Below are positions 1 to 63,172 of a stretch of 64,000 nt of DNA, in pieces. A program made the position numbers and the translations under genes. How positions within the stretch are numbered: position 1 is the stretch's first letter; each line of letters starts with the position of its first letter. The DNA is from Mobula hypostoma (taxonomy: Eukaryota), in the NCBI RefSeq assembly GCF_963921235.1, contig NC_086097.1, positions 154,692,001 to 154,756,000 of the forward strand, given 5' to 3'. The notes below the pieces were generated by a model. The model saw nothing but the letters and a program-made list of their open reading frames with translations. It was not told the origin of the DNA and made no database searches.

Positions 1-410
1 TCTGGGCCTGTACTTGCTGGAATTTAGAAGAATAAGGGGGAATATCATTGAAACCTATTAAATATTGAAAGGTCTAGACAGAATGGATGCGGAAAGGATG
101 ATTCCTATAGTGGGTGAGGCTAGGACCAGAGGGCACAGCCTCAGAATTGAGACATCCATTTAGTACAGAGATAAGAAGGAATTTCTTTTGCCAGGGGGTG
201 GTGGATCTGGGGAATTCATTGTCATGGACGGCTGTGGAAGCCAAGTCATTGAGTATATTTAAAGCGGAAGTTGATAAATTCTATATAGCTCAGGCCAGCA
301 AAGGTTACGGGGAGGAGACAGGAGAATGGGGTTGAGAGGGATAATAGATCAGCAATGAGGGAATGGCAGAATAGGCTTGACAGGCCGGGTGGCCTAATTC
401 TGATCTTACA
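1..410 (+). mobile_element. CR1-clade LINE, 3' fragment
   Basis: ORF remnant FSTEIRRNFFCQGVVDLGNSL...IFKAEVDKF matches the CR1 ORF2 C-terminus. It is followed by the 3' UTR motif ggcctaattctg seen in other copies here. Confidence 0.85.
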
Positions 411-1300
411 GTAGTGTAAATGATTTAGATTAGAATGTACGAGGCATGATTAATAAGTCTACAGTTGACACTAAAATAGGAGGTGGTGTTAACATGAATA
501 TGTTTATCTGAATTTACAGAAGGGAACTTGATCTGCTGGGGAAGTAGGCCAAGGAATGGAAAAAATGTTTACTTCAGATAAGTGGAGAGCTTTGCATTTT
601 GGGAAGACAACTGATTTTACAGTGAATAGTAAGGCCCTAAGGAGTGTTGTAGGACAGAAGGATTGAGAAATGCAAGTACATGGTTCAGTGGAAGTGGCAT
701 CACGGGTGGGGTGACGGCCTTCATCAGTCAGCTCATGGAGTACATGAGTCAGGATGTTCTGTTGCAGTTGTACAAGGCACTGGTAAGGCTACATTTGAAA
801 TTCTATGTTCCGTTTTAGTCCCCTAATACATCAAGTTGGAGCAGATAAGGATAAGATTTATGAGAATGTTGCTGGGACTAAAGGGACTGAGTTATAAAAA
901 AAAGATTGAGCAAATTGGGACTTTTATTAGCAAGTAGAATGGGGACTGATCTATAAATGGGGACTGATCTATAAAATAATGAAGTTCATAGATAGAGTGA
1001 ATGTGCACTGCCTTTTCCCCAGGGTGGGGAATCAAGAGCTGGAGGACATAGGAATGTGGTGAAAGGAGGCAAATTTAATAGAAAACTGAGGGGTAACTTT
1101 TGCACCCAAAAGGTGGTCAGATTGCCAGAGGAACTGGTTGAGGCGGCTAGATTAACAAGAATTAAAAGACACTTGGACACCATTGATAAGAATGGTGTAC
1201 AGGGATATGGACCAAATGCAGGAAAATAGACTAGCTTTGTTGTAACTGTTGGTCAGCATGAACCAGTTTAGCTAACTAGTCTGTTTCCATGCTATACAAC
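411..1300 (+). mobile_element. Degraded CR1 LINE 3' fragment (end of RT to tail)
   Basis: Decayed RT C-terminal sequence (ttgcagttgtacaaggcactggtaagg, LQLYKALVR) with many stops. Confidence 0.75.
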
Positions 1301-1944
1301 TCTACAAAACGGCAACTTTAATAGCAATGATCACCTATAAATGGAGTCCATTTTTAAGAACTGCAAGAGTATGCTCTGCATCTACAAAGATTGACTGCTT
1401 TATTAACAGGATCATAATTCAAAGATGCCATGTCATTTTGACATGCAATCATATTTCACCTTTCATGGTATGTTAATTACCTTGATGTAATATAGTTGTC
1501 TGTGTTTTTATAAAAAAAACTTTGTTCCTTTTACCGAGACAATATTAATATGTCATAGCTGCAGATTTAATGAAACATTGTCCATTAATTATTCAAAGGG
1601 TTCTTATTTCCCATAAGGTTTGAAGTTACTGCCAAAAATGATATATGATCATCATTGAGGTTAATTTTATTTGTCTTTGAGGTGAAATAGTCATTTGCTA
1701 AATTTAAGGAAAGCATATTTTTAGCATTCCAACCAATAACTCTAGAGAAGGCAGTGCTTGAGGTGATGGCAAGTAGGGATTGATGGTCTTATGCGCATTT
1801 CCCTCTTCTAATCTAGGCAATAAAAGTTTTTGTCTTTTTTTGCATACCTTTCAACAGAGGAAAATCTCCTTAATAAATTTATGCCTAATACCATGGTAGC
1901 TTGGTGCTCCAAAACTACTACTCAAATTGTGACATGATGTCCTG

Positions 1945-2693
1945 CATGTAGCCACTTTATCAGGTACACCTGAATGTAAATACAAGTATCTAATTAGCCA
2001 ATATGTGACAACCACTCAATGCATAAAAAGCATGCAGATATGGTTGAGAGGTGCAACACACACAAAGTGCTGGAGAAACTCAGTAAACCGAGCAGTATCT
2101 ATGGAAAAAAGCACAGTTGACATTTCAGGCCAAAATGTCGACTGTACTTTTTCCATAAATGCTGCCTGGCCTGCTGAGCTCCTCCAGCATTTTGTGTGTG
2201 TTGTTCAGATTTCTACATCTGCGGATTTTCTCTTGTTTGTGGTTAAGAGGTGCACTTGTTGCCCAGACCAAAAATCGGAATGGGGAACTAATGTGACCTA
2301 AGTGATTTTAACCATGGAATGAATGTTGGTGCCAGACAAGGTGGTTTGAATATCACAGAAATCACTGATCTCCTGGGATTTTCACACACAGCAGTCTCTA
2401 GAGTTTACAGAGAATGGTGTTAGAAACCAAAAAAGAAACATCCAGAGAGCAACAGTTCTGTGGGCAAAAATGCCTTGTTAATGAGAGAAGCTGCAGGAGA
2501 ATGGCCAGATTGGTTCAAGCTGACAGGAAGGTGACAGTAACTGAAGTAATTGTGCATTACAACAAGAGCATGTCTGAACACACATGTTGAACCTTGAAGT
2601 GGATGAGCTACAGCAACAGAAGACAACAAACATACACTCATTGGCCACTTTATTTGGTACAGGAGGTACCTACTGAGCTGGTCACTGAATGTA
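1945..2693. mobile_element. Non-autonomous Tc1/mariner-type MITE with a nested palindromic element
   Basis: gccactttatcaggtac at 1951 and an inverted counterpart gtacctactgagctggtcactgaatgta ending at 2693. The same family occurs at 30666-31815. Confidence 0.65.
2053..2240. mobile_element. Palindromic Penelope-derived non-autonomous element
   Basis: Arms acacacaaagtgctggagaaactcag and ctgagctcctccagcattttgtgtgt are inverted copies. They match the termini of the GIY-YIG-bearing fragment at 48380-49240. Confidence 0.7.
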
Positions 2694-2924
2694 CAGTGTG
2701 TCACAGCGTGATGGGCACGACCCTAAATCAGGCTTCGGGAGGGAATGTGCACTGTAATCATTACATTTGTTATTTCTCAGAGCTGTCGTGCTTAGATGCT
2801 GAGTGTATGTATCTTCAATTTATGAATGTAAACCAGTTGTTCTGATACTAATTTTTTTTTAATTCACCTCATTATTTAAGTGTTGCAAATCTAAGATACA
2901 TATATTAGGATGCAGATTATCGAA

Positions 2925-4092
2925 TGTCATCAGCCCCTCAAAGCTAATCAATAAGCTTCAAGACCTTTGCCTCAATACCTCCTCGTGAAATTGGATCCTC
3001 GTTTTCCTCACTTGCTGACTCCAGTCAGTTCAGATTGGCAAAAACATCTCCTCCACAATCTCCATCAGCATAGGTGCATCACAAGGCTGTGTGCTTAGCC
3101 CCCTGCTCGACTTGCTTTATACCTGAATGTGTGGCTAACCATTTCCATATTCAAGTTTGCTGATGTATGCCGATATATGATGAATCAGAATATAGGAGGG
3201 AAATTGACAATCTGGCTGAGTGGTGCCATAACAACCACCTCTTATTCAAAATCAGCAAGACGAAAGAGATGATTATTGACTTCAGGAGGAGGAAACCAGA
3301 GGACCATAAGCCAGTCTCCATCAGAGGATCAGAGGTGGTAAGGGTCAGCGACTTTAAATTCCTTGGTGTTATAATTTCAGAGGACCTGACCTGGGCCCAG
3401 CAAGTAAGTGCAATTACAAAGGAAGCACAACAGCACCTCGACTTACGCAGTAGTTTGCAAAGATTTGGTATGACATCTAAAATTTTGACAAACTTCTCCC
3501 GATGTGTCGTGCAGACTGGCTGCATCATAGCCTGGTATGGAGCACCAATGCCCTTGAATGGAAAATCCTAGAAAAAGTAGTGGATTTGGCCCAGTCCATC
3601 ACAGGTAAAGCCCTCTCCACCATTTAGCACATTTACACAAAGGGTTGTTGCAGGAAAGCAGCATCCATTATCGACGACCCCCACCATTGAGGTTATGCTC
3701 TCTTCTCACTGCTGCCATCAGGAAGAAGGTATAAGAAACTCAAAACTCACACCAGCAGGTTCAGGAACAGTTATTACCCCCTCAACCATGAAGCTCTTGA
3801 ACCAAAGAGAAAAACTTCACTCAATGTTCTCACAACCTATGGACACACTTTCTGGGACTCTTCTCATGTTCTCAATATTTATTGCTTCTTAATTTATTAT
3901 TATTTTTTCTTTCTTTTTGTACTTGTCTTTTGCACTCTGCTTGAACGCCCAAGTTGGTGCAGTCTTTCAGTGATTCTTTTATGGTTACTTTTCTATTATG
4001 GATTTATTGACTATGCCTGTAAAAAAATGATTCTCAGGGTTGTATATGGTGATTTATAGGTACTTTGATATAAATCTTCTTTGAACTTTGAA
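2925..4092 (+). mobile_element. Rex1/Babar-type LINE 3' fragment
   Basis: RT remnants GASQGCVLSPLL and EYRREIDNLAEWCHNNHLLFKISKTKEMIIDFRR...FKFLGVIISEDLTW, with a ttgaac-type tail at about 4080-4092. Confidence 0.8.
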
Positions 4093-4145
4093 TTTTCTTA
4101 AACTTTAAGGAGAAGCTCTAACTACGTTGTGTTAAATGCCCACAG

Positions 4146-4200
4146 GGCAAAGATGCAAGTGAGCACTGGATCAGGGAGGTTTGCATGAGCATAATTTAAA
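4146..4200 (+). CDS. Collagen IX-like FACIT gene, NC2 exon (55 bp), with in-frame TAA at 4197-4199
   Basis: ccacag|exon|gtgagt. Reads GKDASEHWIREVCMSII*, similar to the recalled NC2 of COL9A3 (GKEASEQRIRELC) and COL9A1 (QHIKQVCMRVIQ). The phase 1 end fits the next exon. Confidence 0.8.
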
Positions 4201-4981
4201 GTGAGTGAGTGTCAGATTTTGAAATATTCCATGTTAAAGTTATCTTAAGATTTGACCCTCCAACTCTGTGGTACTCTTCTCTCTCACTGATTTTTATGGC
4301 TTTGGAATTATCCGGAGAAAATCTTTAACTAATGTGTATAAAATTCCATTGTCTTCAACTTCATTTAAAGGTTTTTATTTCTTTAAAATAATCAACAGAA
4401 AATATGCATATGAATTCGTCAAGTGTGTGTATAAGCATAGTGAAATTTCATGGCTTCTCTGTATTCCAATTTCTTGTACAAAGTATAAGTATAAAATTTG
4501 ATAGTCATTTTCTGCAGAAAATTGAATATCAAGAATATCTGTTTTGTAATAGCAAATTAAAGATAATCTATTCTACTTAAATAATGTTCATCTATTATTC
4601 TATCATTTTTGGCTTCAGATTTTACTTAAAATTCTGTCAAAGTCTGAACAAGTTAACTGTTAGATAGGGGACTGCAAAAGCAATAAAATATATGAACATA
4701 AAAATAGCAATTTTCTAATCAACCTTTCAAGTCTGTATTAGCCTTCAATGATATTAGAGCTATGTATTCTTGAGATGGGAAAATCTGGTAAAGGTTCTTT
4801 GTTCCAATCAAACAAGCATTTGCGGAGATTTATTCATATCTGAGATATTTTCATCACCATTTATGCCGGCATATATAGCCCATTTCTAATTACCCTTGGG
4901 TAACTGATAGTGACTCATCTTATTGAAGCAACCACACCATTAAAATTTAATGAGTCCTCATTTCCATTATTTCCTTTTTAG

Positions 4982-5146
4982 AGCAAATGTCTCAGCTGTC
5001 TGCTAGCTTAAGACTACCAGTTATGCCAGGAAATCCAGGCGGGCCTGGATCACCTGGACCTCCAGGAGAAGCAGGGCATCCAGGTGCTGTAAGCCCAAAA
5101 GGTGTCAAAGGTCACCAAGGTTACCCTGGTCAGCCAGGATCAAAAG
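4982..5146 (+). CDS. Collagen IX-like gene, NC2/COL1 exon (165 bp)
   Basis: ttcctttttag acceptor. Reads (K)[54 protein letters not shown]. Donor AAG|GCAAGT (GC type), phase 1-1. Confidence 0.9.
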
Positions 5147-6551: not shown

Positions 6552-6620
6552 GGCAGCAAGGTGAAAAGGGTGAGAAGGGCGAAAAAGGTATTGGACTTCG
6601 CGGACCACAAGGGGCACCTG
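6552..6620 (+). CDS. Collagen IX-like gene, penultimate exon (69 bp)
   Basis: gacag|exon|gtaaat. Reads GQQGEKGEKGEKGIGLRGPQGAP, Gly-X-Y with the FACIT GIG imperfection, phase 1-1. Confidence 0.9.
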
Positions 6621-8565: not shown

Positions 8566-8777
8566 GTGTTGATGGTATGCCTGGTATTGGAAAGGATGGC
8601 CGTGATGGCGCCCGTGGTGAAACCGGCCTCCCAGGTGAACAGGGACATCCTGGTCCACCCGGTCTAAGAGGCTTTCCTGGTACCTGTGATGCTTCTTCAT
8701 GCATGGGTCCACCTCATCTCTACATGGGAATGGGGATTGGTAAAACATCTCTGAGCATGAAAGGGCCAGCCAAATAA
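8566..8777 (+). CDS. Collagen IX-like gene, last coding exon (end of COL1 plus NC1)
   Basis: tgttgcag acceptor. Reads GVDGMPGIGKDGRDG...GFPGTCDASSCMGPPHLYMGMGIGKTSLSMKGPAK*, with the FACIT CxxxxC motif and terminal KGP. Confidence 0.93.
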
Positions 8778-46955: not shown

Positions 46956-47143
46956 TTAAGGTCCTTTTTGATTGGATGGCCGACTGGCCAGGCTTGCATA
47001 GAGAGCACACTGTGCCAGGTCACAGACTCCATTCTGCCCACGCGGTCCCTGTGCGCCAGCAATGCCAGGTTGGCCGGGCTCTCCTTGTGGTCCTGGAGTA
47101 CCAGGCAGTCCATCTTTTCCATAGCCAGGTGTTCCAGCGATGC
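46956..47143 (-). CDS. COL22A1: Collagen alpha-1(XXII), last coding exon
   Basis: Reads GIAGTPGYGKDGLPG...GVCDLAQCALYASLASRPSNQKGP*. The recalled human C-terminus is CDPSQCAYFASLAARPGNVKGP. tag acceptor, phase 1. Confidence 0.9.
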
Positions 47144-47906
47144 CTATAATTATGAAATACAATGTATAATTGCTGGTTATTTCAGATGTGTGAAGATTTG
47201 AACAAAAGAAGGAAGATTATGCATTTTTAAATAGCAGCGTAAAAAAAACACTTTGAAAGAGCTGGAAACTATGACATACTCAATGTGCCTAACCAAGGCA
47301 GAGGTGCAAATAACAAATCTAATTGGAAGAATAATGGTGTAGTCAATATAATAGAGTATGTACCAAAGGAACTGACATTCATTCAAAAATAATCCAGTAC
47401 TTTTGTCAGACCATAGTGTTCTGCTTATGAGTATTATCAGAGATATTTAAGCACTGAAATGCCTGCAAAGGAGATATATTTAAAGTATATTTAAAACAGA
47501 AGTTGATGGCACCTTATTAGTAAGCATGTCAATGGCTATGGGGAGAAGGCAGGAGAAGGGGTCGAGAGAGAAAATAAATCAGCCATGATTGGCTTAATTC
47601 TGCTCTTCTGCTTTATGATCTCATGGAGATTCACATGACGCTGCCCAGAGTGAATTTGCTTCTGGAAAATCATAGTATAATTTAATGAAGTCCCTAGCTA
47701 ACCATCAAGAATCCACTTACATTAACTTTGCACTGATCGTACTTTATTCTCCCATTACCTTCAAACCCCAGATTAAGTTCTGCAACACACATTGCCTAAA
47801 AAAGCAGATCCACAATCCTAATTTCAATTATTATAACTTCCACTAATTTCAAACCATATTTACAATATATAACAACTTTAAAGAAATGGAATAATGCATT
47901 TCTTAC

Positions 47907-47984
47907 CTGGAGGGCCTGGCAGGCCAGGATCACCCCTCTGTCCAATGCCCATTGCTCCTGGTTCACCTTTTTCACCTTTATCAC
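47907..47984 (-). CDS. COL22A1: COL22A1 exon (78 bp)
   Basis: cag|GDKGEKGEPGAMGIGQRGDPGLPGPP|gtaag, phase 1-1. Confidence 0.9.
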
Positions 47985-48379
47985 CTGCACATAACATTGA
48001 AGCAGTTATTACAAGGTAGAGGTGACAGATAAAATGTCAAAGATGTGTTTGTGAAAAAAGGTAGATCATGTAAAGCAAATCAAATTAGCTACATTGATGG
48101 ATCTCTTAATGTTTGACCAATACAAGAATATAAGAATATTAAAAAATAGGCGCAAGAGCAGACCAGTTGGAACTCTGAGCCGGCCACAACATTCAATATG
48201 ATTAGCCCCTGGCCTCATCTCCACTTCTGCATCAATTCCCCACAATTCTCAATTCCTTGATCTTTCAAAAATTTATCTACCTCCCCTGTAAGTACCCCAC
48301 TGATCTAGTGTTCACATTTTCTTGGTAGAATTCCAAAGAATCACCACTATCAGTTTTAAATGCTTGCTCCCTAATCTTG

Positions 48380-49240
48380 CAAACACGAGGAAACCTGCAG
48401 ATGCTGGAAATTCAAACAACACACATCAAAGTTGCTGGTGAACGCAGCAGGCCAGGCAGCATCTCTAGGAAGAGATACAGTAAACGTTTTGGGCCGCGAC
48501 CCTTTGTCAGGACTAACTGAAAGAAGAGCTAGTAAGAGATTTGAAAGTGGGAGGGGGAGGGGGAGATCCAAAATGATAGGAGAAGACAGGAGGGGGAGGG
48601 ATGGAGCCAAGAGCTGGACAGTTGATTGGCAAAAGGGATATGAGAGGATCATGGGACAGGAGGCCCAGGGAGAAAGAAAAGGGGGAAGGGGGGGGAAACC
48701 CAGAGGATGGGAAAGGGGTATAGTGAGAGGGACAGAAGGAGAAAAAGGAGAGAGAGAGAAAAAGAATGTGTGTGTATATAAATAAATAACGGATGGGGTA
48801 TGAGGGGAAGGTGGGGCATTAGCAGAAGTTTGAGAAGTCAATGTTCATGCCATCAGGTTGGAGGCTACCCAGACGGAATATAAGATGTTGTTCCTCCAAC
48901 CTGAGTGTGGCTTCATCTTCACAGTAGAGGAGGCTGTGGATAGACATATCAGAATGGGAATGGGACGTGGAATTAAAATATGTGGCCACTGGGAGATCCT
49001 GCTTTCTCTGGCGGACAGAGCGTAGGTGTTCAGTGAAATGATCTCCCAGCCAATATATAGAAGGCCACATCGGGAGCACCGGATGCAGAATATCACCCCA
49101 GCCGACTCACAGGTGAAGTGTCGCCTCACCTGGAAGGACTGTCTGGGGCCCTGAATGGTGGTAAGGGAGGAAGTGTAAGGGCATGTGTAGCATTTGTTCC
49201 GCTTACAAGGATAAGTGCCAGGAGGGAGATCGGTGGGGAT
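48380..49240 (-). mobile_element. Penelope-like element 3' fragment with GIY-YIG endonuclease remnant
   Basis: RHFTCESAGVIFCIRCSRCGLLYIG and EHLRSVR...HSHSDM...RLEEQHLIFRLGSLQPDGMN. 13-bp TSD ctccctaatcttg at 48367-48379 and 49241-49253. Inserted into an old CR1. Confidence 0.88.
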
Positions 49241-50254
49241 CTCCCTAATCTTGTAGCATTTTCTCCATGTTCAAGATACACCCACTAGTGGAAGCATTTC
49301 AACATCTACCTTGAAATGCTCCAGAAGGATGTTATATATTTCAACTCTACTCGACTCCAAAGAATATACATCTTATTTCTTTCGCTGCTTATAACTCTTG
49401 CATCCAGGAATTAGCTCCTTGAATCCCCTTTGGACAGCCTCAATACATATTTTTCTTAAATAAGCAGACCAAAATGATCCACAGTAGTCTTGGCTGTATT
49501 ATCACCAGTACTTTCTACAATAGCAATAACAATCCCCTTCAGTATTTCTAAACTCCAATTCTCTTCAATAAAGGTAAATGTGCTATTTGCCTTTCCAACT
49601 ACTTGCTGTAGTTGCCTGCTAAACTTCTGCAGTTCTTGCACAAGAAAACTTAAATCCTTTTGTACTTCACTCATCCACAATCTTTCTGACTAATAAGGTG
49701 CCTTTAGGTTCTTTTTACTAAAATGCACAACTTTTCATTTTCCCACATTAAACATCATGTACCATTTCTTTGCTCATTCATTTAACCTTTCTATATCCAG
49801 TTGCAGCATCCTTTCATTTTCAACACAACATGCCCTCCTGCCTATTTTCAAGTCATCGCAAACCAGGACACTTTAAATGCTGCCCCTTCTTTCAGGTTAT
49901 TAACATAAATTATAAATCATTCAAGGCCAAGAACTGATCGTCAGGGTTCTTTACTAGTTACATACATCCAGCCTGAAACATACCCTTTTTATTCTGACTC
50001 TCTGTTTAGATAACCTATTTCACTTTATACCTTAAGTGCAACAGCCTTTTACAAAACACCAAGTCAAATGACTTCTGAAAATATTGATTTCTCTTAATTG
50101 ACTCTGTCACATCTCAAAGATTTTTAGCAAATTTGTTAAACATGATTAATCAGTTTTAAAACCACATTGACCTGATTTAATTGCATTAAAGCTCACCTAC
50201 TTCTTCCTTAATTATAGACTCCAACATTTTACTTACAACAGATGTTAGGCTAAT

Positions 50255-50865
50255 AAAGTTCAAGTTCAAAGTACATTTATTATCAAAGTACAAATACTGT
50301 ATGTCACCACAAACAACATTGAGATTCATTTTCTTGTGGTCATTCAAAGTACAAGAAAAACAATAAAATCAATGAAAGACCACACTCTACAGGATGGACA
50401 AACAACCAATGTATAAAAGATACCAAACTATGAAAATACAGAAGAAAAGAAATAACAATAAATAAGTAATACATATTGAGAACATGATATAGAGAGTCCT
50501 TGAGAGTGAGTCCATATGTTATTGGAACATTTCCAGTGATGGGGCGATAGAAGTTGAGTGAAATTATCCCCAGTTTCGAGAGCCTGATGGTTGAGGGTTA
50601 ATACCTGTTTCTGAACCTGGTGGTGTGAATCCTGAGGCTCCTGTACCTTCTTCCTGATGGCAGCAGTGAGAAGAGAGCATGGCCTGTATGATAGGGATCC
50701 TTGATGATGGATTCTGCTTTCCTATGACAGTGCTCCATGTAGATGTTCTCAAAGGAGGGGAGGCTTTACCGGTGATGGACTGGGCCATATACAGTACTTA
50801 TTGAAGGCTTTTCCATTCAAGGGAATTGTTGTTTCCATACCAGGCTGTGATGCAACCAATCAACA
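50255..50865 (-). mobile_element. Rex1/Babar-type LINE 3' fragment
   Basis: GCITAWYGN and LLPSGRRYRS-type remnant, same family as 2925-4092, with an aagttc-repeat tail. Embedded in a decayed CR1 (about 48120-51340). Confidence 0.75.
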
Positions 50866-51479
50866 GACCTAACCTACAGTTCCCTGGTTTCTGTCTACCC
50901 CTCTCTTGAATAAAGGAATCACATCTGTGGTCTTCCAATTTGTGTTTTTCTACATTCAGGGAGTCCTGTAAATAATTAATCAATGGTTCCACCATCTCTG
51001 CAGACATGTCCTTTAAAACCATTGGTAACCAAGTTATGAGGACCTGGCTATTTGTCTACTTCTAGTCCCACTAGTTTTTCTCATGCCTTGCCCTTTGTGG
51101 TAGTTCTTTCACAATATTTGAAACTTGTCTGTTAGAACTATTTGGGATATTTGCAGTGTTGTGAAAATTGCTGTGAAATATTGATGTAATCTAGTTATTG
51201 TTTCCTTGTTTCATGTTATTGCATAGTCTCCAGTGGTCCCACACTTGCTCTTGCCATTCACTTCCTTTTGATACACTCATAAAAGTCTGTGACTTTTTAT
51301 ATTACATCAGTTTTTTGTCATAATCATTCTTCTCCCTGCCATAGTGACAGCTGTTTTTAAAGGGGACACTAAATTAGTCCCACAGCTTTGTTCTTTCTTC
51401 ATGGCTCTGAAATTTCTTCATTGCTCTACATTTCCTTTACGATATATGAAAAAAAATCTTTTTGGAACGTTACAACTGA

Positions 51480-52085
51480 ATTTGCTTCTCGATCCTTTGA
51501 GACATTGGAACCAGGATGAAAATAATTGCCCTATTTACTGCCGTTACGAGGCCAAACTTAGGCTGGAAGAACACCACCTCATATTCCATCCGGGTAGCCT
51601 CTAACCTGATGGCATGAACATCAGTAGCTCTAACTTCCAGTGATTTCTCCAGCCTCCCCGTCTTTCTTTTTCCATTCCTCATTCTAGTTACTCCATCTCT
51701 TCTCCTCATCTGCCTATCACCTCCCTCTGGTTCCCTTCCCCCTTCCCTTTCTTCACTGGTCCACTGTCTTGTCCTGTTAGATTTCTTCTCTGCAGCCCTT
51801 CACCACCTATCACCTCCTAGCCTCTCATTTCACCCCCCCCCCACCCATCCAACTTCCCCCTCATCTGGTTTCACTTATCACCCACCAGCTTTTACTCTTT
51901 CCCCTCCCTCAATGTCTTGTTTTGGATTCTGACACCTTCTTTCCCAGTCCTGGTGAAGGTCTCAGTCCAAAATTGTGACTGTTTATTTCCCTCCATAGAC
52001 ACTGCTTGACCTGCTGACGTCTTTCAACATGTTGTCTGTGTTGCTCTGGATTTCCAGTGCCTGCAGAATTTCTTGTGTTTATGAT
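51480..52085 (+). mobile_element. Decayed Penelope-like 3' fragment
   Basis: EAKLRLEEHHLIFHPGSL remnant, pyrimidine tract, and terminal motif cagtcctggtgaaggtctc. Confidence 0.7.
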
Positions 52086-52323
52086 TTGCTGTATCAAAAT
52101 TACCTCTTCAGTGAGCACATTTCCTTCAGAACTGAATGGAAAGTCGTAATGTATATGATGATACAAATGCATTTGAATTTGTAAGTCATAGTCTCAATCA
52201 TTTCACAGATACCAAGAAATGATTAATAAGTAAATCAGGATTTTTCTCATAAAACTGGTTCAATCAAGTGACTTTGAATAAGTTCTAATTAAGATCATGG
52301 TTTAAAATGAAACATGTCTGTAC

Positions 52324-52506
52324 CTTTTGGACCTACTGGTCCTCTGGCTCCCTCCAGACCTTGTTCTCCGGGTGGGCCAGGTTCCCCTGGAACACCAGGT
52401 CTCCCTGGAAATCCATCATTCCCTTGTGGACCAGGAGGCCCTGGCTTTCCAGGTGTTGACTTAACGGAAACTGGTTGAAACTGAGACATGAGATAGGACA
52501 ACCGAG
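52324..52506 (-). CDS. COL22A1: COL22A1 exon (183 bp; end of NC2, start of COL1)
   Basis: ttttcag|[26 protein letters not shown]...GPVGPK|gtac, phase 1-1. Confidence 0.92.
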
Positions 52507-53804
52507 CTGAAAACAAAATGAGCAAAGTATTTTTTTAAATAACTCATTGACATGGCAAAAGCATTTTCACATTTTTTTTTAACAAAGGTTCTGCAGTTTA
52601 GTTTATCATTGTATGCAGGAGGTATATTGATACATGCAGTCTAGTTGCATAACTGTAGATTTGATCATGACATCCACAGAGTTTTTTTTTAATAATAACA
52701 AAAATAAAAAATGCCAGCAAAACTCAGCAGATCAGCCAACATCTATGGAGAAAGAAATAGCGTTAACATTTTAACCAAAATTTTAATCAAAACCAAAATT
52801 AGAAATCAAATTAATTTGCAGAGAAGATGGAGAGGTAGAGGGAACAAATGGAATCAATGTGATTAGCGGGACACCAAGACAGATTGAATAATACAGGTGA
52901 CAGTGGCATTCACTGAAAGAAGACAGTGAAGAATTTTTAAACGTAATGTATCCCGAATTTTCTCCTGTTGTTTCAGATTTCCAGCATATGTGATTTTATT
53001 TCTGTAAATTGAATATATTTGAAACAATGTTACTGGAACTTAATAGAAAAAGAGTATCAGTCCCCAGCTATATCACTGTTGTCTGATTCATATTCTCTCT
53101 CTCCATCTCTTACGACTAAACTGAAATCATTATCAGAGTTTAATATCATATTGAGGGAACATGGATTTCACAACAGAATTAAATAGTATTCAAGTGGTTT
53201 ATTGCATTTCAATCTTTATTAAATGCATAACATTTCTTCATTGATGTTTTTATAAGCAACTTAGCTCACAAATGTTTCCACCTTACTAGCCTCATCAGGC
53301 TTGGCACAAACTGAGTAAAGCTGTAAACCAAGGAAATAGCCAACAGATTAGGCAGCATCTGTGAAGAAAGCAAATGAGCTTTGTGGCCTTCATCCTGTCG
53401 AAAATCTAAACTTGAGCAATTGTTCTTCTGATGATGCACTTTGAGTGTGAACATTTTCGGACTTTGTTTCAGATTTGTACAGAATGCTCTGTATGTATTT
53501 GGAGATTTTATTTCCCTTTTGAGATTTACATTCCAGTCTAACCTTCAGAAATGCACACTCATTGTTTGTGCTTTTAAAATTTTATTGTTCTTCTATGTGC
53601 TCTAAAATAATCAATTCTTTTGAAATGATAGGATTGTTTTGAACCTAACAGTTTAGGCAATTGAGAGTGCCCAAACAAATTTACCATAGTTAGAGAAAGA
53701 AGAATTTCTCCTTATTGCTTGAGATTAGGTTGAAAGTTGGCACCAGACTTCTATTCTTAAGCACGTGGAGCACAGTAATTACAGAAATATGAAGTGTAAC
53801 CTAC

Positions 53805-53871
53805 CATCAAGCTGCTTCGACAGCTCTTCCCTTATAAGTCTTCTCAAATACTCAGATGAAGGTGGCTCACC
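53805..53871 (-). CDS. COL22A1: COL22A1 NC2 exon (67 bp)
   Basis: ttccttag|GEPPSSEYLRRLIREELSKQLD|gtagg. The recalled human sequence is SPSMETLRRLIQEELGKQLE. Phase 0-1. Confidence 0.92.
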
Positions 53872-54444
53872 CTAAGGAAAACATCACCACGATATGTCAC
53901 TGTCTGGTCGGAGAGGGAGTTCTGCAAAACTGTTCATCTGACATGATTTTTGCCACCTGACATTAGATGCCAGGAGCGAAGACAAGAAATTTTAAATAAA
54001 CAGAAAAGATGTAAAAAAGCACATATCTAAATTCTTTCCTTTACCTCTTGTGCGCTGGTGGTTTGATCACACTAAATAACTCTTAAGTTTCTAAAATTAT
54101 CAAGTCCAAAATAGAAAACAAGGAAGACTGAAAATGAAGCAGAGTTCCAACTCTCTGGTTAGGGCAGCGTACAAGACTACAGGAATGTTGACGGGAATGA
54201 AAGATTGTAGCCATAAGGAAAGATTCCATTGCTTTGGAAAAGAAGTAGTTGCAGGGAGTCTTCACTAAGACATATAAAATGATAAGAGGCCCAGATCGAA
54301 AAAAAATAATAAGGGACAGTTTCCCTTAGCAGACCAGATTAAAAAAAGTGATATAGATTTAGAGGAAGATCTATAATAGCTATTTCACTTAATGGGTAGC
54401 AGGGTCTGAAAGGGTAGCAGAAGCAGAAGCCCTCTTCACATTAG

Positions 54445-54740
54445 GAGGTGTCACGGATGTGTAGCGGTTAGTATGACGTTAATACAGCTCAGTGGAAACA
54501 GTTTGGAATTCAGTTCCAGCACCATCCTGTATGGAGTTTGTACATTCTTCCCATGACTGTGTATGTTTCTTCTAGGTGCCTCCCACAGTCCAAAGACATA
54601 TCGGTTAGCAAGCTAATTGGTCATTATAAATTGTCCTGTGTTTGGGCTATGGTTAAACAGGTGGGTTGCTGGGCAGCATGGCTCGTTAGGCCAAAAGGGC
54701 ATGTTTGACACTATATCTCTAAATAAATAAAATAAAAAAA
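54445..54740 (+). mobile_element. tRNA-derived V-SINE-like element
   Basis: Head gtgtagcggttag, central tggagtttgtacattcttccc...ctcccacagtccaaagac, A-rich tail. Confidence 0.6.
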
Positions 54741-55345
54741 TATATAAATAACTACCTGGACATATACTTGAAGAGCAGCAGGTCTTGTACTGAATGACTC
54801 AGATTAGCTTATTGTCATTTACATCACTGCGTTTTGAAATTCCTTCCTCATGAGAAGCTCACAGAGTAACCAGTAGACGGTAGTAATAAATACAACAGGT
54901 GCAATACAGCAGAATGGCACAAGGATTCTAGTGCAAAAGGTCACTGGATAACGGTTGAAGGCAGGAATCCTGTTAATTTCCTCACCCTCACCTCCTTTAT
55001 CTAGTCATCAATTGAATTGGCCCTTCTGCCAGAGGGTAGTGACTTGATGGAATATGGCTATAGAGGGTTATGGAGGCCAAGTTATTCGGAGTATTAAAGG
55101 CAGATAATGACAAGTTGTTGATTAGTTTGGGGGTGAAGGGGTACAGTGAGAGGGCAGGAGAATGGATTGAAAATCAGCTATGACTGAATAATGAAGCAGA
55201 TTCTATGAGCTGAAAGGCCTAATTCTGCTTCTATATATTCTGATTGTATGGTGTAGTGGTTCCAAGTCTGAAGAAATCTTTTCATTTCTTGACAATTCTA
55301 ACTGACTTTAATGACAAGGTTGATAATCACTTTTAAGTTACTTAC

Positions 55346-55525
55346 TCTTTCCCCAGGTAAGCCAGGAGAACCTGGTTGACCTGGTGGGCCAGTTGGACCT
55401 CGTTCTCCAGGAGGCCCAGTTGGACCCATTATTCCAGTATGTCCTTTTATTCCTGGGAGGCCTGGATCACCAGATTGTCCTTTCTCACCCTGGTTTCCTT
55501 TTTCACCTTTAAAACCCCGGTCACC
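55346..55525 (-). CDS. COL22A1: COL22A1 exon (180 bp)
   Basis: aacag|GDRGFKGEK...[10 protein letters not shown]...GLPGER|gtaag, 20 perfect Gly-X-Y triplets. Confidence 0.92.
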
Positions 55526-55902
55526 CTGTTCAAAAGAAAGAAAATCATAATGAAGCAGTAATAACATCCTTCAAAAATAAAGGACTTTTTAAAAACATTT
55601 TTCATCATTTTTTCGGAAAAACCTATTTAACAAGTTATTTGCCAAACTTAAATAAGTCTGTTTCATGGACTTGATTGGAAGATTCAAGTTCATGAAACTT
55701 GAATCTCAATTTCTAATAAAATCATAAATGCATCAATTTCTAATAATCTCAATTTCTAATAAAATCATAAATGCATCAAGCTGGAAGATAAATAAAGGAA
55801 ACATTCCTTTATCATGATGACTCAATATATTTCACAGCAAATATACTGCTTACTAAGGTATTGTTAACTACCTCTACTGGTGTCAGTTGAGTTCTGAATT
55901 AA

Positions 55903-56456
55903 TAACACAAAATACTCTGCAGATGCTGGGTTCAAAGCAACACTCACAACACGCTGGAGGAACTCAGCAGGTCAGGCAGCATCTGTGGAAATGATCAGTC
56001 AACGTTTCAGGCCAGAACCTTCAGGCCAGAGACTGAAAAGGGAAGGGGCAGAGGTCCTATAAAGAAGGTGGGGGGGGTGGGGAGGGTGGTAGGTTCCAGG
56101 TGAAAAACCAGTAAGGGGAAAGATAAAGGGGTGGGGGAGGGGAAGCAAGGAGGTAATAGGCAGGAAAGGTGAAGACGGAATAGGGGAAAACACAATGGGT
56201 AGTAGAAGGAGGCGGAACCATGAGGGAGGTGGTAGGGATAGGGAAAGGGAGGAGGAGGGAATTACTGGAAGTTAGAGAATTCTATGTTCATACCAAGGGG
56301 CTGGAGACTACCTAGACAATATATGAGGTGTTGCTCCTCCAGCCTCAGTTTAGCCTCATCATGGCTGTAGAGGAGGCCATGTATAGCCCGTAACGTTAAC
56401 TGATCATTTCCACGGATGCTGCCCGACCTGCTGAGTTCCTCCAGAGTGTTGTGAAT
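55903..56456 (-). mobile_element. Penelope-derived element with inverted termini
   Basis: Inverted arms (ctggaggaactcagcaggtc / gacctgctgagttcctccag). Flanking duplication gttgagtt(c/a)tgaattaa at 55886-55902 and 56457-56473. Confidence 0.8.
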
Positions 56457-57114
56457 GTTGAGTTATGAATTAAGTTTATATCTATTAAGAAGTTAACCAA
56501 TCATGGGCAGGGATCTGGAAATACAAATTTATTTGTTAGTGTCTTTTGCTTTTGACACCTTTTACAGAATCTGACACTGTTTTCTGTAAATTCCAATGGA
56601 ATGAAAATGGATCAAAATTAAACTACTGGAAGAACTCAGTGAATCAAACAGGAGCTGTGGAAGGAAAGAAATGGTCAACATTTCAGATTGAGACCTTGGA
56701 TTAGGAATGAAAAATGATTGGTTTTGTAAATAGCGAGTTTTTTTCCAGCCATATTTTCTCATCTACATTCAGCTTAGCTGGTGCACAAACCCAGAAGTTA
56801 ATTACAGAAATCTTTGCCCATGCCTCAAGGCCAACAAACTATGCACCTACTTGCTTATTAAAACTGAACTGAATGTTACCTCAGTATTTTGAGGAATAAA
56901 TAAGTAAACTGAAACAGTACTTGGCTACTGAGAGCATACAAGTTTCTGACTGATATTTGGTCTTTATGGAATTGGCTTTGACTATAACATACCTTTATTT
57001 TGATGTTTTTATATTGACCATTCTCTTTTGAGGGGTCTTTGATAAGAACCATCATTTTATTTAGTACTCAAGGTCTTGAAATAGATCATTTATCTTCCAG
57101 ACAGAATCACTTAC

Positions 57115-57159
57115 CCTTTCTCCTTTGGACCCCTGTTCACCAGGTTTGCCAGGATATCC
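57115..57159 (-). CDS. COL22A1: COL22A1 exon (45 bp)
   Basis: aatcag|GYPGKPGEQGSKGER|gtaagt. Confidence 0.9.
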
Positions 57160-57295
57160 CTGATTAAAGAAGTAAAGCATCCATGAAACAGTGAAGTGAT
57201 ATGGTCTATTGTTTAGTTCAGTACAAGGTAAATAATAACTATGAAGAGGTGATTTCTATTAGAAAATGAAAGGAAATGCAGAATGTATGACTTAC

Positions 57296-57331
57296 TGTCT
57301 TGCCTGGAGCTCCTGTCTCTCCTGGAGGACC
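57296..57331 (-). CDS. COL22A1: COL22A1 exon (36 bp)
   Basis: aacag|GPPGETGAPGKT|gtaagt. Confidence 0.88.
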
Positions 57332-57924
57332 CTGTTCATGGAAGTATATAATTAGTATGTATAGCTATAAAGGCAAGATAGAAGGGAAGGAAATATTGGG
57401 TGACAAACAGATAAACAGGAGTAAGGATCTTACATTTAAGAGGCATTTAGACAGACATTTAAATAAGTAAGGCATAGAAGGATATGGTTCTAATCTGGCC
57501 AAATGATATTAATATACATGGACAAAAACAATAGCTTTCACATTATTTATTTATTATTATAACAACGTAGTAATTTTTTGTGTCTTGCACTGTACTGCTG
57601 CCAAAAACCAACAAATTTCATGATATCTATCAGTGATGATAAACCTGATACTGATGAATAAAGGACCAAAAGACCCATTTCTGCACTCTACAGCTCTATG
57701 AAACCAGTTGCCTTTTCAAGGTTAATCTATCATTTAATAAAATTATATTCAATCTCATGCCTCTCAATCCACCAGTTCAACATGCACATAATAATCAGCG
57801 ACAATTAAAACTTTGTAAATATTAAAACATGTTTAGGAGAAAAAATAATTTAAAGTAAGAATGAGTAAAATAAAAACACACACCTGCACTTTCCATTTCA
57901 GTACGTATTATTTACTTGTTTTAT

Positions 57925-58172
57925 TTTTTTTAAAAGATACAGCACATAACAGGTTGAAGAGCTTGTGCCACCAAATTACACCAATGTAACCAATCAACCT
58001 CCGAACCCGCATGTCTTTGGAATGTGGAAGGAAAGCCGAGCACCCAGAGGAAACCCACGTGGTCACATGGAGAAAACAGAAACTCCTTCAGACAGCGAAG
58101 GAATTGAATACAGCTGGTGTTGTAATAGCATTGCAGCATTGCACTAACCACGGTGCTATCATGCCACCCCAA
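57925..58172 (-). mobile_element. tRNA-derived V-SINE-like element
   Basis: Reverse strand reads gggtggcatgatagcaccgtggttagtgca...gtgggtttcctctgggtgctcggctttccttccacattccaaagac. Confidence 0.6.
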
Positions 58173-58854
58173 ATGTATCAGCAAAAGTAAATTCAAAACT
58201 TTAATATTTATGATCTGTGTTATCAATAAATATCAAAAAGTACAATGATTTTTTTATTACTTGAAATACTTGAGTTGAATCACTGAAATCAAAATATGAT
58301 TTTCCATAATTTTTATTTCATTACCAGCAGCCCTTGGTTATAGTTCCTTTAATACATCAGCCACTGCAGTCGTGGATTGCAGGATCCCCATGGGGAGTGA
58401 TTTATGCTCTCAGGCCACATCAAGCCCATTTCCCTTGCTTCCTTTCAATGCTTCATGAGACCGTGATGGACAGATCACCTTAACAGCCCTAACTATTTCA
58501 CATGGGTCAAGTACAAATCTCATTACTGCCACTGTCAACTCGAAAGCAGCAGAATATGTGAATCATCCAGGTTTGCTTTAAGTATTTTTTACAACAATAA
58601 CTCCTTTTTAAATCAGAACATTACAGATTATAGTAACTTCTGATTTGGCGTTAGCATACATTTAGCATACTGTATATCTAATACAATAAGAATGTGTGTA
58701 ACCCAATTTCTTGAAATAAAGTTCATAAGAGGTTTAAATGGAGATTACAATCCTGAAAATTCCATGTAGAGTGTGGATGAACAGTATTGTTGTGAAAAAT
58801 CAAATAATTTAAGATGCAATATTTGTATATTGAGAAGTCTTAGAAACAGCCTGT

Positions 58855-59745
58855 CATAGAAACATAGAAAACCTACAGCACAATACAGGCCCTTCGGCCC
58901 ACAAAGCTGTGCCGAACATGTACTTAACTTAGAAATGACCTAGGGTTACCCATAGCCCTTCATTTTTCTGAGCTCCATGTACCGGTCCAGGAGTTTCTCA
59001 AAAGACCCTATCGTATCTGTCTCCACCACCGTCACCGGCAGCCCGTTCCATGCACTCACCACTCTCTGCACAAAAAACTTACCCCAGACACCTCCTCTAT
59101 ACCTTCTTCCAAGCACCTTAAAACTGTGCCCTCTCGTGCTAGCTGTTTCAGCCCTGGGAAAAAGCCTCTGACTATCCACACGATCAATACCTCTCATCAT
59201 CTTATACACCTCTGTCAGGTCACCTCTCACCCTCCATTGCTCCAAGGAGAAAAGGCTGAGTTCACTCAACCTGTTTTCATAAGGCATGCTTCCCAGTCTG
59301 GGAACATCCTTGTAAAACTCCTCTGTACCCTTTCTCTGGTTTCCACATCCTTCCTGTAGTGAGGCGACCAGAACTGAGCACAGTACTCCAAGTGGGGTCT
59401 GACCAGGGTCCTATACAGCTGCAACATTACCTCTCGACTCCTAAACACAATCCCACGATTGATGAAGGCCAATGCACTGTATGCTTTCTTAACCACAGAG
59501 TCAACCTGCACAGCAGCTTTGAGTGTCCTATGGACTCAGACCCCAGGATCTGTCTGATCCTCCACACTGCCCAGAGTCTTACCATTAATACTATATTCTG
59601 TCAACATATTTGACCTACCAAAATGAACCACCTCACATTTATCTGGGTTGATCTTCATCTGCCACTTCTCAGCCCAGTTTTGCATCCTATCAATGTCCCG
59701 CTGTAACCTCTGACAGCCCTCCACACTATCCACAACAACCTCCAA
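58855..59745 (-). mobile_element. CR1 LINE 3' fragment
   Basis: LQRDIDRMQNWAEKWQM, RPHLEYCAQFWSP and TRGHSFKV, with a catagaaa tail. Confidence 0.88.
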
Positions 59746-59764
59746 CTGACTGAATGATTTAAAT

Positions 59765-60124
59765 ATAAACACGACAAAGTCGACAGATGCAGGAAATCTA
59801 AAGCAACACACACACAAAGTGCTGGAGGAACTCAGCTGGTCAGGCAGCATCTATGGAAATGAATAAATCAATATTTTGGACCAAAACCCTTCTGAGAAGG
59901 AAAGGGGAAGATTTCAGAATAAAAAGGTGGAGGAGGGCAAGAATGCTAGCTGAAAGGTAATGGGTGAAGCCAGGTGAGCATAAAAGGACAAGGGCTGGAG
60001 AAGAAGGAATCGGACAGGAGAGGAGAGTGAGCAATAGAAGAATGAGAAGGAGGAAGGAATCTGGGGGAAGGAATAGGCAGGTGAAAAGAGGTAAATGGTC
60101 GGAGTGAGGAATAGGGAACATTTG
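59765..60124 (-). mobile_element. Penelope-derived insertion
   Basis: Same terminus as the other copies. 14-bp TSD tgaatgatttaaat at 59751-59764 and 60125-60138. Confidence 0.75.
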
Positions 60125-62134
60125 TGAATGATTTAAATTATGGTTAGAATTTGCTCCAGATTCCAACACCTGCAATCTCTTGTGTCTCCATGGTTAGGAT
60201 TTTAATTGGTCATTCAAAACAAAAATAGTTGTTTATCTTTGTCTTTAGGAAATGTAAATTGTTACAATACATGTAGTGAAATTATGATCAAGTTGTGATG
60301 GGAAACAAGTGCTCTACAGTTTCTGGTTATTTTAAGTGTAGTTTAAGTGTGATAGTGAAAGCTTATGAGGCTCTTTTGCCTTGCAGCAGTTTGATTTCTT
60401 GTTCCATATTCCAGCATCTACCTCTCTTATGTCTCCAGAAATAGATGAATACTTGATAAGCAAGGGGACGAAAAGTTACTGTGGCTAAACAGGAATGTGC
60501 AATTAAGGTCACCATCAGAACAACCACAAACTGATTAAAGGTGCAGCAGGCCAAATTCAATAGTTCCACTGCAAGCTCCTTTCCCTTCGGCTTGTAATTT
60601 ATTTCTCACCATATAATTATCCAATTCCTTCTGGAAGACCACAATGGAACCTCCCTCCATCACATCTGCAGGCAGTGAGTTTGAGAATCTAAATACATGC
60701 CGTGTTAAAAATAGGTCACTCTTGTTCTTAATAATCTTCCCTTTTATCTTACACTTCATGTCCTCTAGTTCTTAACATTTCATCAATTCATATCTACCAG
60801 AAAATACACTCACTCACTCACTCTACCCAATCCTTGTAACTTTAGTGAATACACAAGAGACTGCAGAGGCTAGGTTCTGGAGCAATAACAACCTACTAGA
60901 AGAACTCAGTGGGTTAGGCGGCACCTGTGGGAGAAAAGGAATTGACAATCTTCTGAGTGGAAAACCTGAATCAGAACTGGTGAGTTTAAGGTTGAAACTC
61001 TGCATCAGTTCCAATGCAGGGTTTCAATCCAAAATGGGAGAATTACTGTCTGCCCATAGATGTTGTCTGATGTGCTGAGTTCCTCCAGCAGATTGTTTGT
61101 TGCATGTAATTTTAGTCCCTCATCCTAGGAACTAAGGAAGTCTTTTTTGGACTCTCTCCAATGCTTTCATGTCCTTGTTTTAATTATGTGGCCAGATTTG
61201 AACAGAATATTCCAATTAATATTTAAGTGATTGAAAGGATCAGGGTGACTTCTCTCTTTCCTAGTTCTCATGAGTGGATAGCAATTGTCATCCTAGTATG
61301 TAAGGAAGAAGAAAGAATACAGAGAACTATTCCTTTGTTAGCCTAATGACAGTAACAGGGAAATGCTGTAATAAAGCATGTCAAAGTAGAACACTTTAAA
61401 GGCAATAAGAAGATTGAGCAGAGTCATTTTGGTTGGAAAGTAGGAGAGCGGAATATTTTGTAAATGTAGAAGATTTTAATTTTGATGTTCAGTGGCACTT
61501 ACAGTATGTGTTTTTGTTCACAAGTCACAATTAACTCAAGACAAATGGTATGTGGGTCTTTGTTATAAAAGTGGAGTAAATATATCTTGTAGTAATTATA
61601 TTGGCTGTTGGTGAAAATGCACATGAAGCATTGTCTACAGTTTAGCTGCCTTATCCAAAAGAGGATATGTTTGCCTTGTAAAGGGTGCAGGGAAAATTCA
61701 CTAGAATGATTCCAAAGATGGCAATTTTTTTCTTTGCTTGATGAGATATTGAGCAGATTGGGTCTACATTCTCTTGAGTTTAGAAGAATGACATATCTCA
61801 CTGAAAATTAAAGATCTTGCAGGTTGGATCCAGGAAGAATGTTCTGCTGAGAAATCTATAATCAGGGGTTATGGCATTCAGAATCAGTAGTAGATTACTT
61901 AAGAATGCAATAAGGAGGAACTTCAAGTTATCTTCACCAGAAGGCTGTGTGAGTCGAGCCATTATGTCCAGATATACAGCGAAAGGATGGATGAGCTGGC
62001 AAATCAGCTATGATTTATATTATCGTCAGAACAGGCTTGAAATGCAAGATAGCTCACCATTCTTGCTTCTGTTCCTTACATTTTTTAACAGAACCATTCA
62101 GTTTTGAGAATGGAATAAAACGAATGATACTCAC

Positions 62135-62206
62135 ACGAGATCCTGGTAGCCCTAGAACTCCTGGAAACCCTGGATCTCCATTTGATCCTTTTGAACCCTT
62201 TGGTCC
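62135..62206 (-). CDS. COL22A1: COL22A1 exon (72 bp)
   Basis: ttttag|GPKGSKGSNGDPGFPGVLGLPGSR|gtgagt. Confidence 0.9.
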
Positions 62207-63118
62207 CTAAAATTCAAAATAATTTCTAATAATACAGTAATTTCTAATAATTTCTAATAATACTAGTTTAATCTCTAAAATAAGATAAAAGTAGATAAGT
62301 CAATTAATCAGTACAAAATTCATGTTTTTGGCATAGACAAAGTACTTTATGAAGAGGGTTACTTAACACAAAAAAAATTTGTTTTATAACATGAATGAAA
62401 AAAGGGCACAATTTTGAAATCTTGGCTCACTGCATGATTACAAAATGTTTGCTTTTAATTTTTCATATCTTTCTTCTCTTTTCTAAATAAGTTGTTTCTT
62501 TCTAGCAGGTGTTGATGATGAAGTTATTACTGTTAAAGTTGACTCTATCCTCACCAAAACAAAATTAAAAGGTGTGTCTACTAGGAAGTCTGCACAGGAG
62601 AGCCATTTGAATTTTCTGTCTCTGTTGTCCATGGACACTGCCATCAACAATGATAGTTTCATTAACATGACAGTTTGGTTCACAAAGCATAGATTAGAAA
62701 CCAAACCTGTAGCACTCATGAAATAATCAAAAACTGAACATATTAAAATTAATGATACCAACGTTAAAAATAATTATACTAATAATGGATACTTATTAAT
62801 GTCTAGTCTCCTAACATACAACCGTTCAATCTTTTGAATCATTCAGTCTTTTTGAGAAGTCTTTTTGTTTTTAATGGAACATTATAAGTTTCCGTGATCT
62901 GATCACCAGTTGGTGAAGCTTAATCAAATAACGCATCCAATAAACAATACCCTTTGTAAAATACATGCATTCAAAACAAGCAGAATTCACTCTTCCATCC
63001 CTACAGAAAAATGCACATATTTATTTTCATCAACCATTCTCCCACCCCCCATCACTTCCCAAAACCCAACTGCACAATGCACATTTTTCTTCTATTTATT
63101 GTTAACTGTGGGACCTAC

Positions 63119-63172
63119 CGGTAGACCTGGTTCACCGGGCTTTCCTTCAGGTCCAGAAGGGCCAGGTTTACC
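63119..63172 (-). CDS. COL22A1: COL22A1 exon (54 bp); the gene continues beyond the window
   Basis: ctttacag|GKPGPSGPEGKPGEPGLP|gtaggt. Confidence 0.9.

Follow-up and report, generated by a model that had tools for sequence, protein, structure and literature searches.

Why does an exon with good splice sites, in a gene for a collagen IX-type chain, end in a stop codon? The exon lies in a 64,000-nt stretch of DNA, the window. Positions are given relative to the window; negative positions lie upstream of it, and adding 154,692,000 gives the coordinate on contig C1 of the assembly (G000). Three features define the problem:

4146..4200, plus strand: exon for the first half of NC2, 55 nt, with a cag acceptor and a gtgagt donor, ending ATA ATT TAA A
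4197..4199, plus strand: premature TAA, ancestrally CAA, present in organism A and not in organism B
4159..4164, plus strand: candidate cryptic donor GTGAGC, which would give a 13-nt open in-frame exon

The original prediction described a 55-bp exon with good splice sites and an in-frame TAA, and this is what we found: cag and gtgagt flank a reading frame that translates as GKDASEHWIREVCMSII*, with the stop codon TAA at 4197-4199. It also held that a donor 4 nt downstream would not remove the stop, which is correct, as the resulting 59-nt exon still has the TAA. NC2 exons of equal size and phase occur in the COL9A1- and COL9A3-like genes of the same genome. The 170 bases around exon 4146-4200 have a single occurrence in the genome, and a search of the flanking introns for a second copy of the 55-nt exon gave none (best match, 27 of 55 positions). 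A LINE-like fragment seen in the sequence at about 2950-4090 ends just before the acceptor of the NC2 exon.

The stop stayed in place when 4197-4199 was checked against sequencing data. A 2023-nt contig from run X3 (organism A) is identical to the assembly over the 1111 bases of 4090-5200, and no other letter at 4197 was found among the run X3 contigs; this run probably comes from the source sample, rare variants drop out of contigs, and the comparison covers one organism A individual. Organism B, the sister species, reads CAA G before the gt of the donor (C at 4197, G at 4200), and the catshark protein P0001 reads ..CMSMIQEQ at the NC2 position. Both agree with the earlier expectation of a sense codon such as CAA at 4197. 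The TAA at 4197-4199 is real and arose from CAA by a C>T change.

The stop belongs to a gene of about 130 kb that starts far upstream of the window, near G000:C1:154,569,600. In the 200 kb examined upstream and in the window we mapped 32 exons totalling 2,720 nt and, near -122 kb, a signal-peptide exon. Together they encode NC4, COL3, NC3, COL2, NC2, COL1 and NC1, the FACIT collagen IX order, with Cys in NC3, NC2 and NC1, and the assignment agrees with Pfam Collagen and Laminin_G matches and with the PDB hits of the ortholog. Around the NC2 exon, the gene is arranged as follows:

1..4145, plus strand: intron sequence (3' part) leading up to the NC2 exon; farther upstream the gene has 28 more exons, with 7 hard lesions
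4982..5146, plus strand: second half of NC2 and start of COL1, 165 nt, with a GC donor and a Gly>Ser change at 5092-5094
6552..6620, plus strand: COL1 exon, 69 nt, open, 3 codons fewer than in catshark
8566..8777, plus strand: last coding exon, for the end of COL1 and for NC1 (two Cys); 78% identity to catshark P0001; natural stop at 8775-8777

The downstream exons had been described as keeping frame and splice sites. They are indeed open; they are not pristine, given the Gly>Ser change, the GC donor and in-frame COL1 gaps of 6 and 3 codons relative to catshark. Compared with organism C, exon 4982-5146 lacks 18 nt, and compared with catshark it lacks 6 residues. Its GC donor (5147-5148) is apparently common to organisms B and C and is therefore probably ancestral and no lesion.

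The original prediction had also called for a search for further lesions in the upstream exons, and seven more hard lesions were found there:

-91327: stop TAG in COL3, the first stop of the gene
-60124: frameshifted phase-0 exon, 55 nt, ending in a stop
-50340: donor changed from GT to TT
-28022: stop TGA
-27161: stop TAA
-10138: acceptor missing
-841: frameshifted phase-0 exon, 128 nt, about 700 nt before the window

The total is thus eight over about 95 kb: four stops, two frameshifted exons and two lost splice sites. With a frameshifted exon located about 700 nt upstream of the window, the reading frame is disrupted ahead of the 4197 stop. A shortened chain without half of NC2, COL1 and NC1, as first proposed, would not be made, as the first stop falls in COL3 about 95 kb upstream; any transcript would end there and be a target for decay, which would make the 4197 stop a late secondary lesion. 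A TGA near the signal-peptide exon was left out of the count because it may fall in an intron. Among helical Gly slots, 4 of 173 are replaced (the audit counted 175, of which two that are located before the helix were dropped).

Three smaller irregularities accompany these lesions. A 35-nt piece of the first COL3 exon stands four times in tandem at about -95,210 to -95,100; we considered it as a frameshift and rejected it, since its three additional copies amount to 105 nt and leave the frame intact; the gain interrupts the helix and is no hard lesion. Two shark exons were not found between -67996 and -60124. Just upstream of the NC3 exon, at about -60,270 to -60,205, lies a partial, decayed copy of that exon with its acceptor, which keeps Gly where the main copy has Arg.

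One and the same exon finder returned 3 stops in 21 exons here and none in 45 exons of the COL9A1-, COL19A1- and COL22A1-like genes (20, 20 and 5, respectively); one non-Gly and one non-GT call in the COL19A1 control look like boundary artefacts. DNA and protein searches, which score best candidates only, place the gene at one locus, with the next-best NC4 match at 39-40%. Several lesions thus sit in the ancestral exon-intron structure, and no functional duplicate was found. The gene is a real unitary pseudogene; that it is a pseudogene at all we regard as nearly certain.

An assembly error, or a single heterozygous null allele, is extremely improbable by comparison. Such an explanation draws on the facts that the confirming run is probably the source sample, that contigs lose rare variants and that one organism A individual was seen; the X3 contig nevertheless matches the assembly over all 1111 bases, the three stops that could be compared across species are each C>T changes from the relatives' codons, and the neighbouring collagen genes are clean. 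The seven upstream lesions cannot be explained by a lone null allele at 4197. Among the options first offered, recent pseudogenisation is the one that holds, with eight hard lesions and a sister species that has none of the tested stops.

Could the gene still work, by stop readthrough or by heavy exon skipping combined with the 4159 cryptic donor? The seven damaged upstream exons are of phase 0-0, so that the frame would be kept if they were skipped, and the frame also survives in the NC2 exon's 13-nt form. Such a rescue would, however, require seven skips together with use of a weaker donor: the GT at 4159 scores 6.1 against 8.85 for the real donor, with a lower quartile of 7.8 among 44 true donors. 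Most of the damaged exons also keep good splice sites, skipping would remove half of NC2 and the NC3 cysteines, and readthrough would have to act on stops of three kinds (TAG, TGA and TAA). We consider a working gene very improbable.

Which collagen IX gene has been lost? The names COL22A1-, COL9A1-, COL19A1- and FAM135-like are assigned from human motifs and arrangements. The neighbour on the 3' side is:

46958..63172, minus strand: 3' exons of a COL22A1-like gene, tail-to-tail with the pseudogene; named from a motif

This neighbour has no stops and none of 39 Gly slots changed in five audited exons. About 490 kb upstream of the pseudogene lies a DUF676 gene (FAM135-like), one of only two DUF676 matches in the genome, so contig C1 carries FAM135-like and then the pseudogene tail-to-tail with COL22A1-like. 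Contig C2 has the mirror order, COL19A1-like tail-to-tail with COL9A1-like and then FAM135-like. Human COL9A1 also lies tail-to-tail with COL19A1. We therefore rejected the gene as the canonical COL9A1: the COL19A1-facing slot on C2 holds another, clean gene, and the pseudogene faces COL22A1. Separate COL9A3-like and COL9A2-like NC2 exons are present on C2 and C76. With COL9A1-, COL9A2- and COL9A3-like genes all elsewhere, the gene is a fourth collagen IX ohnolog, beside COL22A1. The earlier label, collagen IX-like, was right as to chain type and needs correction only where it suggested COL9A1, the gene being the COL22A1-linked paralog of the col9a1c type. Databases label this ohnolog COL9A1 or COL9A3, which can cause false claims of COL9A1 loss.

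The best named matches are white shark and catshark proteins (81-82%), followed by sturgeon, paddlefish, coelacanth and teleosts (55-64%); tetrapod proteins were absent from the 12 and 16 matches listed in the homology searches. Batoid proteins were absent from three homology-search match lists, an absence that says little, since the matches are mostly partial or mis-framed models. Orthologous shark and fish proteins do exist, mostly as database models that are partial or partly out of frame. The host itself is a ray of stingray type: two of its globin exons match PDB 1cg5, a stingray haemoglobin, best (98-99 bits), and the alpha exon matches 1gcv, a shark haemoglobin, at 58 bits. Against PDB entries, the catshark ortholog matches the alpha-1(IX) NC4 at 204 bits, and its C-terminal part matches alpha-3(IX) best (140 bits vs 107 for alpha-2 and 93 for alpha-1).

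Zebrafish col9a1c primers (PMC10119692) encode LDLNRLD, GDTVC and a C-terminal NIKGP; these motifs are primer translations made in this analysis, and the match to the ray gene runs via teleost and shark hits. Teleost matches carry LDLNRLD and GDTVC, and catshark P0001 ends NIKGPSK. The N-terminal motif is found in four of six non-osteoglossid teleost-type models (P0006, P0008, P0010 and P0012), with a close variant in P0005, while P0007 is without the region. The ray gene is thus most similar to proteins that bear the zebrafish col9a1c terminal motifs, and motifs and similarity together make it very probably the ortholog of col9a1c.

Two known systems resemble the gene. With zebrafish col9a1c (prp locus; LC546948; PMC10119692 and PMC11409509) it shares a collagen IX-type chain with an N-terminal NC4/TSPN, and the primer-encoded terminal motifs recur in the family that it matches best; it differs in that the ray copy is disabled. 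With vertebrate COL9A1 and COL9A3 (PDB 2uur, 9wxp and 5ctd) it shares the NC4-COL3-NC3-COL2-NC2-COL1-NC1 layout and the 55-nt NC2 exon, but it lies at another locus, beside COL22A1, in a genome with its own separate COL9A1-, COL9A2- and COL9A3-like genes.

A search for an NC4/TSPN exon of the COL9A1-like gene returned none between its first COL3 exon and FAM135-like (G000:C2:96,570,001-96,750,000), nor genome-wide. COL9A1 may exist in this ray in the short form only, and the dead gene would then have been its only NC4-bearing collagen IX chain. Two more FACIT-type genes, each with a single large TSPN exon, were seen at C1:126.79 Mb and C2:87.50 Mb; each lies about 100 kb from a COL21A1-like TSPN exon.

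When was the gene lost? Lesion states were compared in 6 of the 24 listed runs, on two stretches that cover three of the eight hard lesions. Organism B has none of the three stops covered (4197, -28022 and -27161). The stop at -28022 is also absent from organisms C, E and G, and that at -27161 from E and G, the site lying outside the coverage of C. The three tested stops are private to the organism A species, and each is a C>T change relative to the relatives' codons. Organism B carries a hit of its own:

4180..4180, plus strand: 1-nt deletion in organism B, an independent frameshift in the same NC2 exon (one contig, depth 15.9)

The null state of organism B rests on this one frameshift in one contig, and the cryptic donor at 4159 could bypass it.

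Other changes are shared. Both Gly>Ser substitutions that could be compared (-28043 and 5092) are common to A and B, as is the 18-nt gap in exon 4982-5146. At -28043, Gly is found in organisms C, E and G; organism C also keeps the 18 nt as well as a shark-like Lys at 5034 and Arg at 5041. At 5-6% divergence these three organisms look open where seen, in short coding stretches only. No exon indels are listed for them; the substitutions considered were 40 of 47 and 40 of 79, so that changes specific to C or G could have escaped notice. The 544 bases compared carry 16 changes on the A+B stem, 3 on A alone, 11 on E+G and 3 on E alone, and A and B differ at 24 of 1,941 bases.

We placed the loss on this tree with a rough Poisson single-loss model, which assumes indel rates, treats sites as equal and serves as a guide only. 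The model dates the loss to the final 0.8-0.9% of a 2.9% stem (95% range 0.3-2.1%), with the best fit in the stem's last third. Loss only after the A-B split would give P of 0.001-0.005 for at least eight hard lesions. The model predicts that some of the five other hard lesions are common to A and B. The combination of private stops, shared Gly>Ser changes and a shared 18-nt gap, and open relatives suggests that constraint ended late in the A-B ancestor. None of the three hard lesions tested, out of eight, is shared. Function was likely lost late in the common ancestor of A and B and not at the origin of rays.

These data bear directly on the opposite timing, an early death in rays that accompanied the loss of pectoral ceratotrichia, with all related species carrying a dead copy. 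The NC4 exon is only 81-82% identical to those of two sharks, themselves 96% identical over a similar region; this divergence exceeds the approximately 1.5% expected of neutral decay and suggests long relaxation. The two shark exons that were not found and the old, decayed partial exon duplicate nearby point the same way. Against an early death, the tested sites hold Gly and sense codons in C, E and G, organism C retains the 18 nt and the two shark-like residues, and most splice sites survive. Had the gene died at the base of the stem, the model would give three private stops out of three with P = 0.005 and so few Gly changes (4 of 173) with P = 0.007, the latter even at 3.5% neutral divergence. 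We consider early death improbable. The excess NC4 divergence from sharks hints at an earlier relaxation, in a comparison where the query regions differed.

Loss late in the A-B ancestor leaves the question of cause. In zebrafish, Col9a1c is located on actinotrichia, which become disordered when the gene is knocked out (PMC10119692); a role in actinotrichia is also given in PMC11409509 and PMC13120675. The presence of the product in fin fibres is documented in zebrafish only (PMC10119692). Actinotrichia are called homologous to ceratotrichia (PMC4764851 and PMC11681717), batoid pectoral fins are described as lacking ceratotrichia (PMC13543312), and the actinodin genes are said, after Zhang 2010, to have been lost at the fin-to-limb transition (PMC4764851 and PMC13120675).

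We found only two actinodin-like loci genome-wide, on C67 and C9. The label rests on the C(N/D)PXXDPXC motif given in PMC4764851, for which 17 of 45 genome-wide matches cluster at C9. The gene on C67 (G000:C67:51,148,247-51,159,994) has a 1-nt frameshift and an in-frame TAG in its last exon, as read from the assembly only. The gene on C9 (G000:C9:73,664,650-73,670,260, minus strand) has 17 motif repeats and a TAA after 747 open codons, followed by about 85 in-frame codons with a degenerate repeat. This late stop removes only the last approximately 85 codons and may not create a null. Searches with the C9 frame gave no usable ESM Atlas hit and no Pfam hit, and catshark And1 primers gave no convincing match.

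The following account would fit these observations. The intact gene would have supplied an alpha chain with an NC4 domain, which decorates the collagen fibres of the fin fold and keeps them in line; these fibres are the actinotrichia of teleosts and the ceratotrichia of cartilaginous fish. Selection may have ceased in a lineage in which cartilage radials support the pectoral fins; Gly substitutions and in-frame deletions would have become fixed in the shared ancestor, with stops and frameshifts following later and separately in each sister. Relaxed need for fin fibres is our preferred cause, held at a little under even confidence, and a link to the loss of ceratotrichia is plausible. Because C, E and G are open where seen and presumably have the same ray fin plan, a ray-wide loss is not supported. 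If C, E and G are rays too, which is likely at 5-6% divergence, they would also be without pectoral ceratotrichia, and this weakens a simple link of cause and effect.

The same pseudogene could also have arisen without any connection to fin fibres, through drift, in one small clade, of a fourth collagen IX ohnolog for which there was little need. That relatives only 5-6% away are intact where seen, and that one actinodin keeps most of its frame, speak for such drift. The broken actinodin on C67 and the late stop on C9 speak against it, as damage clusters on fin-fibre genes while COL9A1, COL19A1 and COL22A1 show no stops in 45 exons. Drift of this kind is a real but minority possibility. The main reading, a unitary pseudogene of the col9a1c type, lost late in the A-B ancestor, we consider quite probable.

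A wider suggestion, which we put forward tentatively and with some doubt, is that a small ray clade is now dismantling its fin-fibre kit, col9a1c and both actinodins, in parallel with the fin-to-limb losses, while close relatives keep the genes. The likeness to actinodin loss at the fin-to-limb transition is that fin-fibre genes decay where the endoskeleton carries the appendage; the ray loss differs in being recent and readable in its remnants, in looking limited to two sisters, and in that one ray actinodin may still partly function. The cross-species lesion states and the sister's independent hit set a limit on this analogy. Primate GULO and UOX, unitary pseudogenes that are single-copy and disabled in place, offer a second comparison. 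They share with the ray gene an in-place, single-copy loss with independent later lesions in sister species, but differ in that the founding lesion of the ray gene is not identified.

No report of this loss was found in our literature search, which left most subscription papers outside, and the main text of a 2026 preprint on manta and devil ray genomes does not mention collagen or pseudogenes. Textbooks count the loss of fin-fibre genes among the steps toward limbs, but tetrapods lost theirs too long ago for the process to be followed. In rays, a recent loss that can still be read, with relatives that seemingly have the gene, would make it possible to test in which order the genes are lost and which anatomical change goes with the losses. 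If a collapse of the kit confined to this clade is true, it would give a living, dated comparison for the loss of dermal fin-skeleton genes and its order.

One further observation was made elsewhere in the genome: a globin cluster at C36:102.3-103.2 Mb holds 22 of 26 globin exon matches, one of them with three stops.
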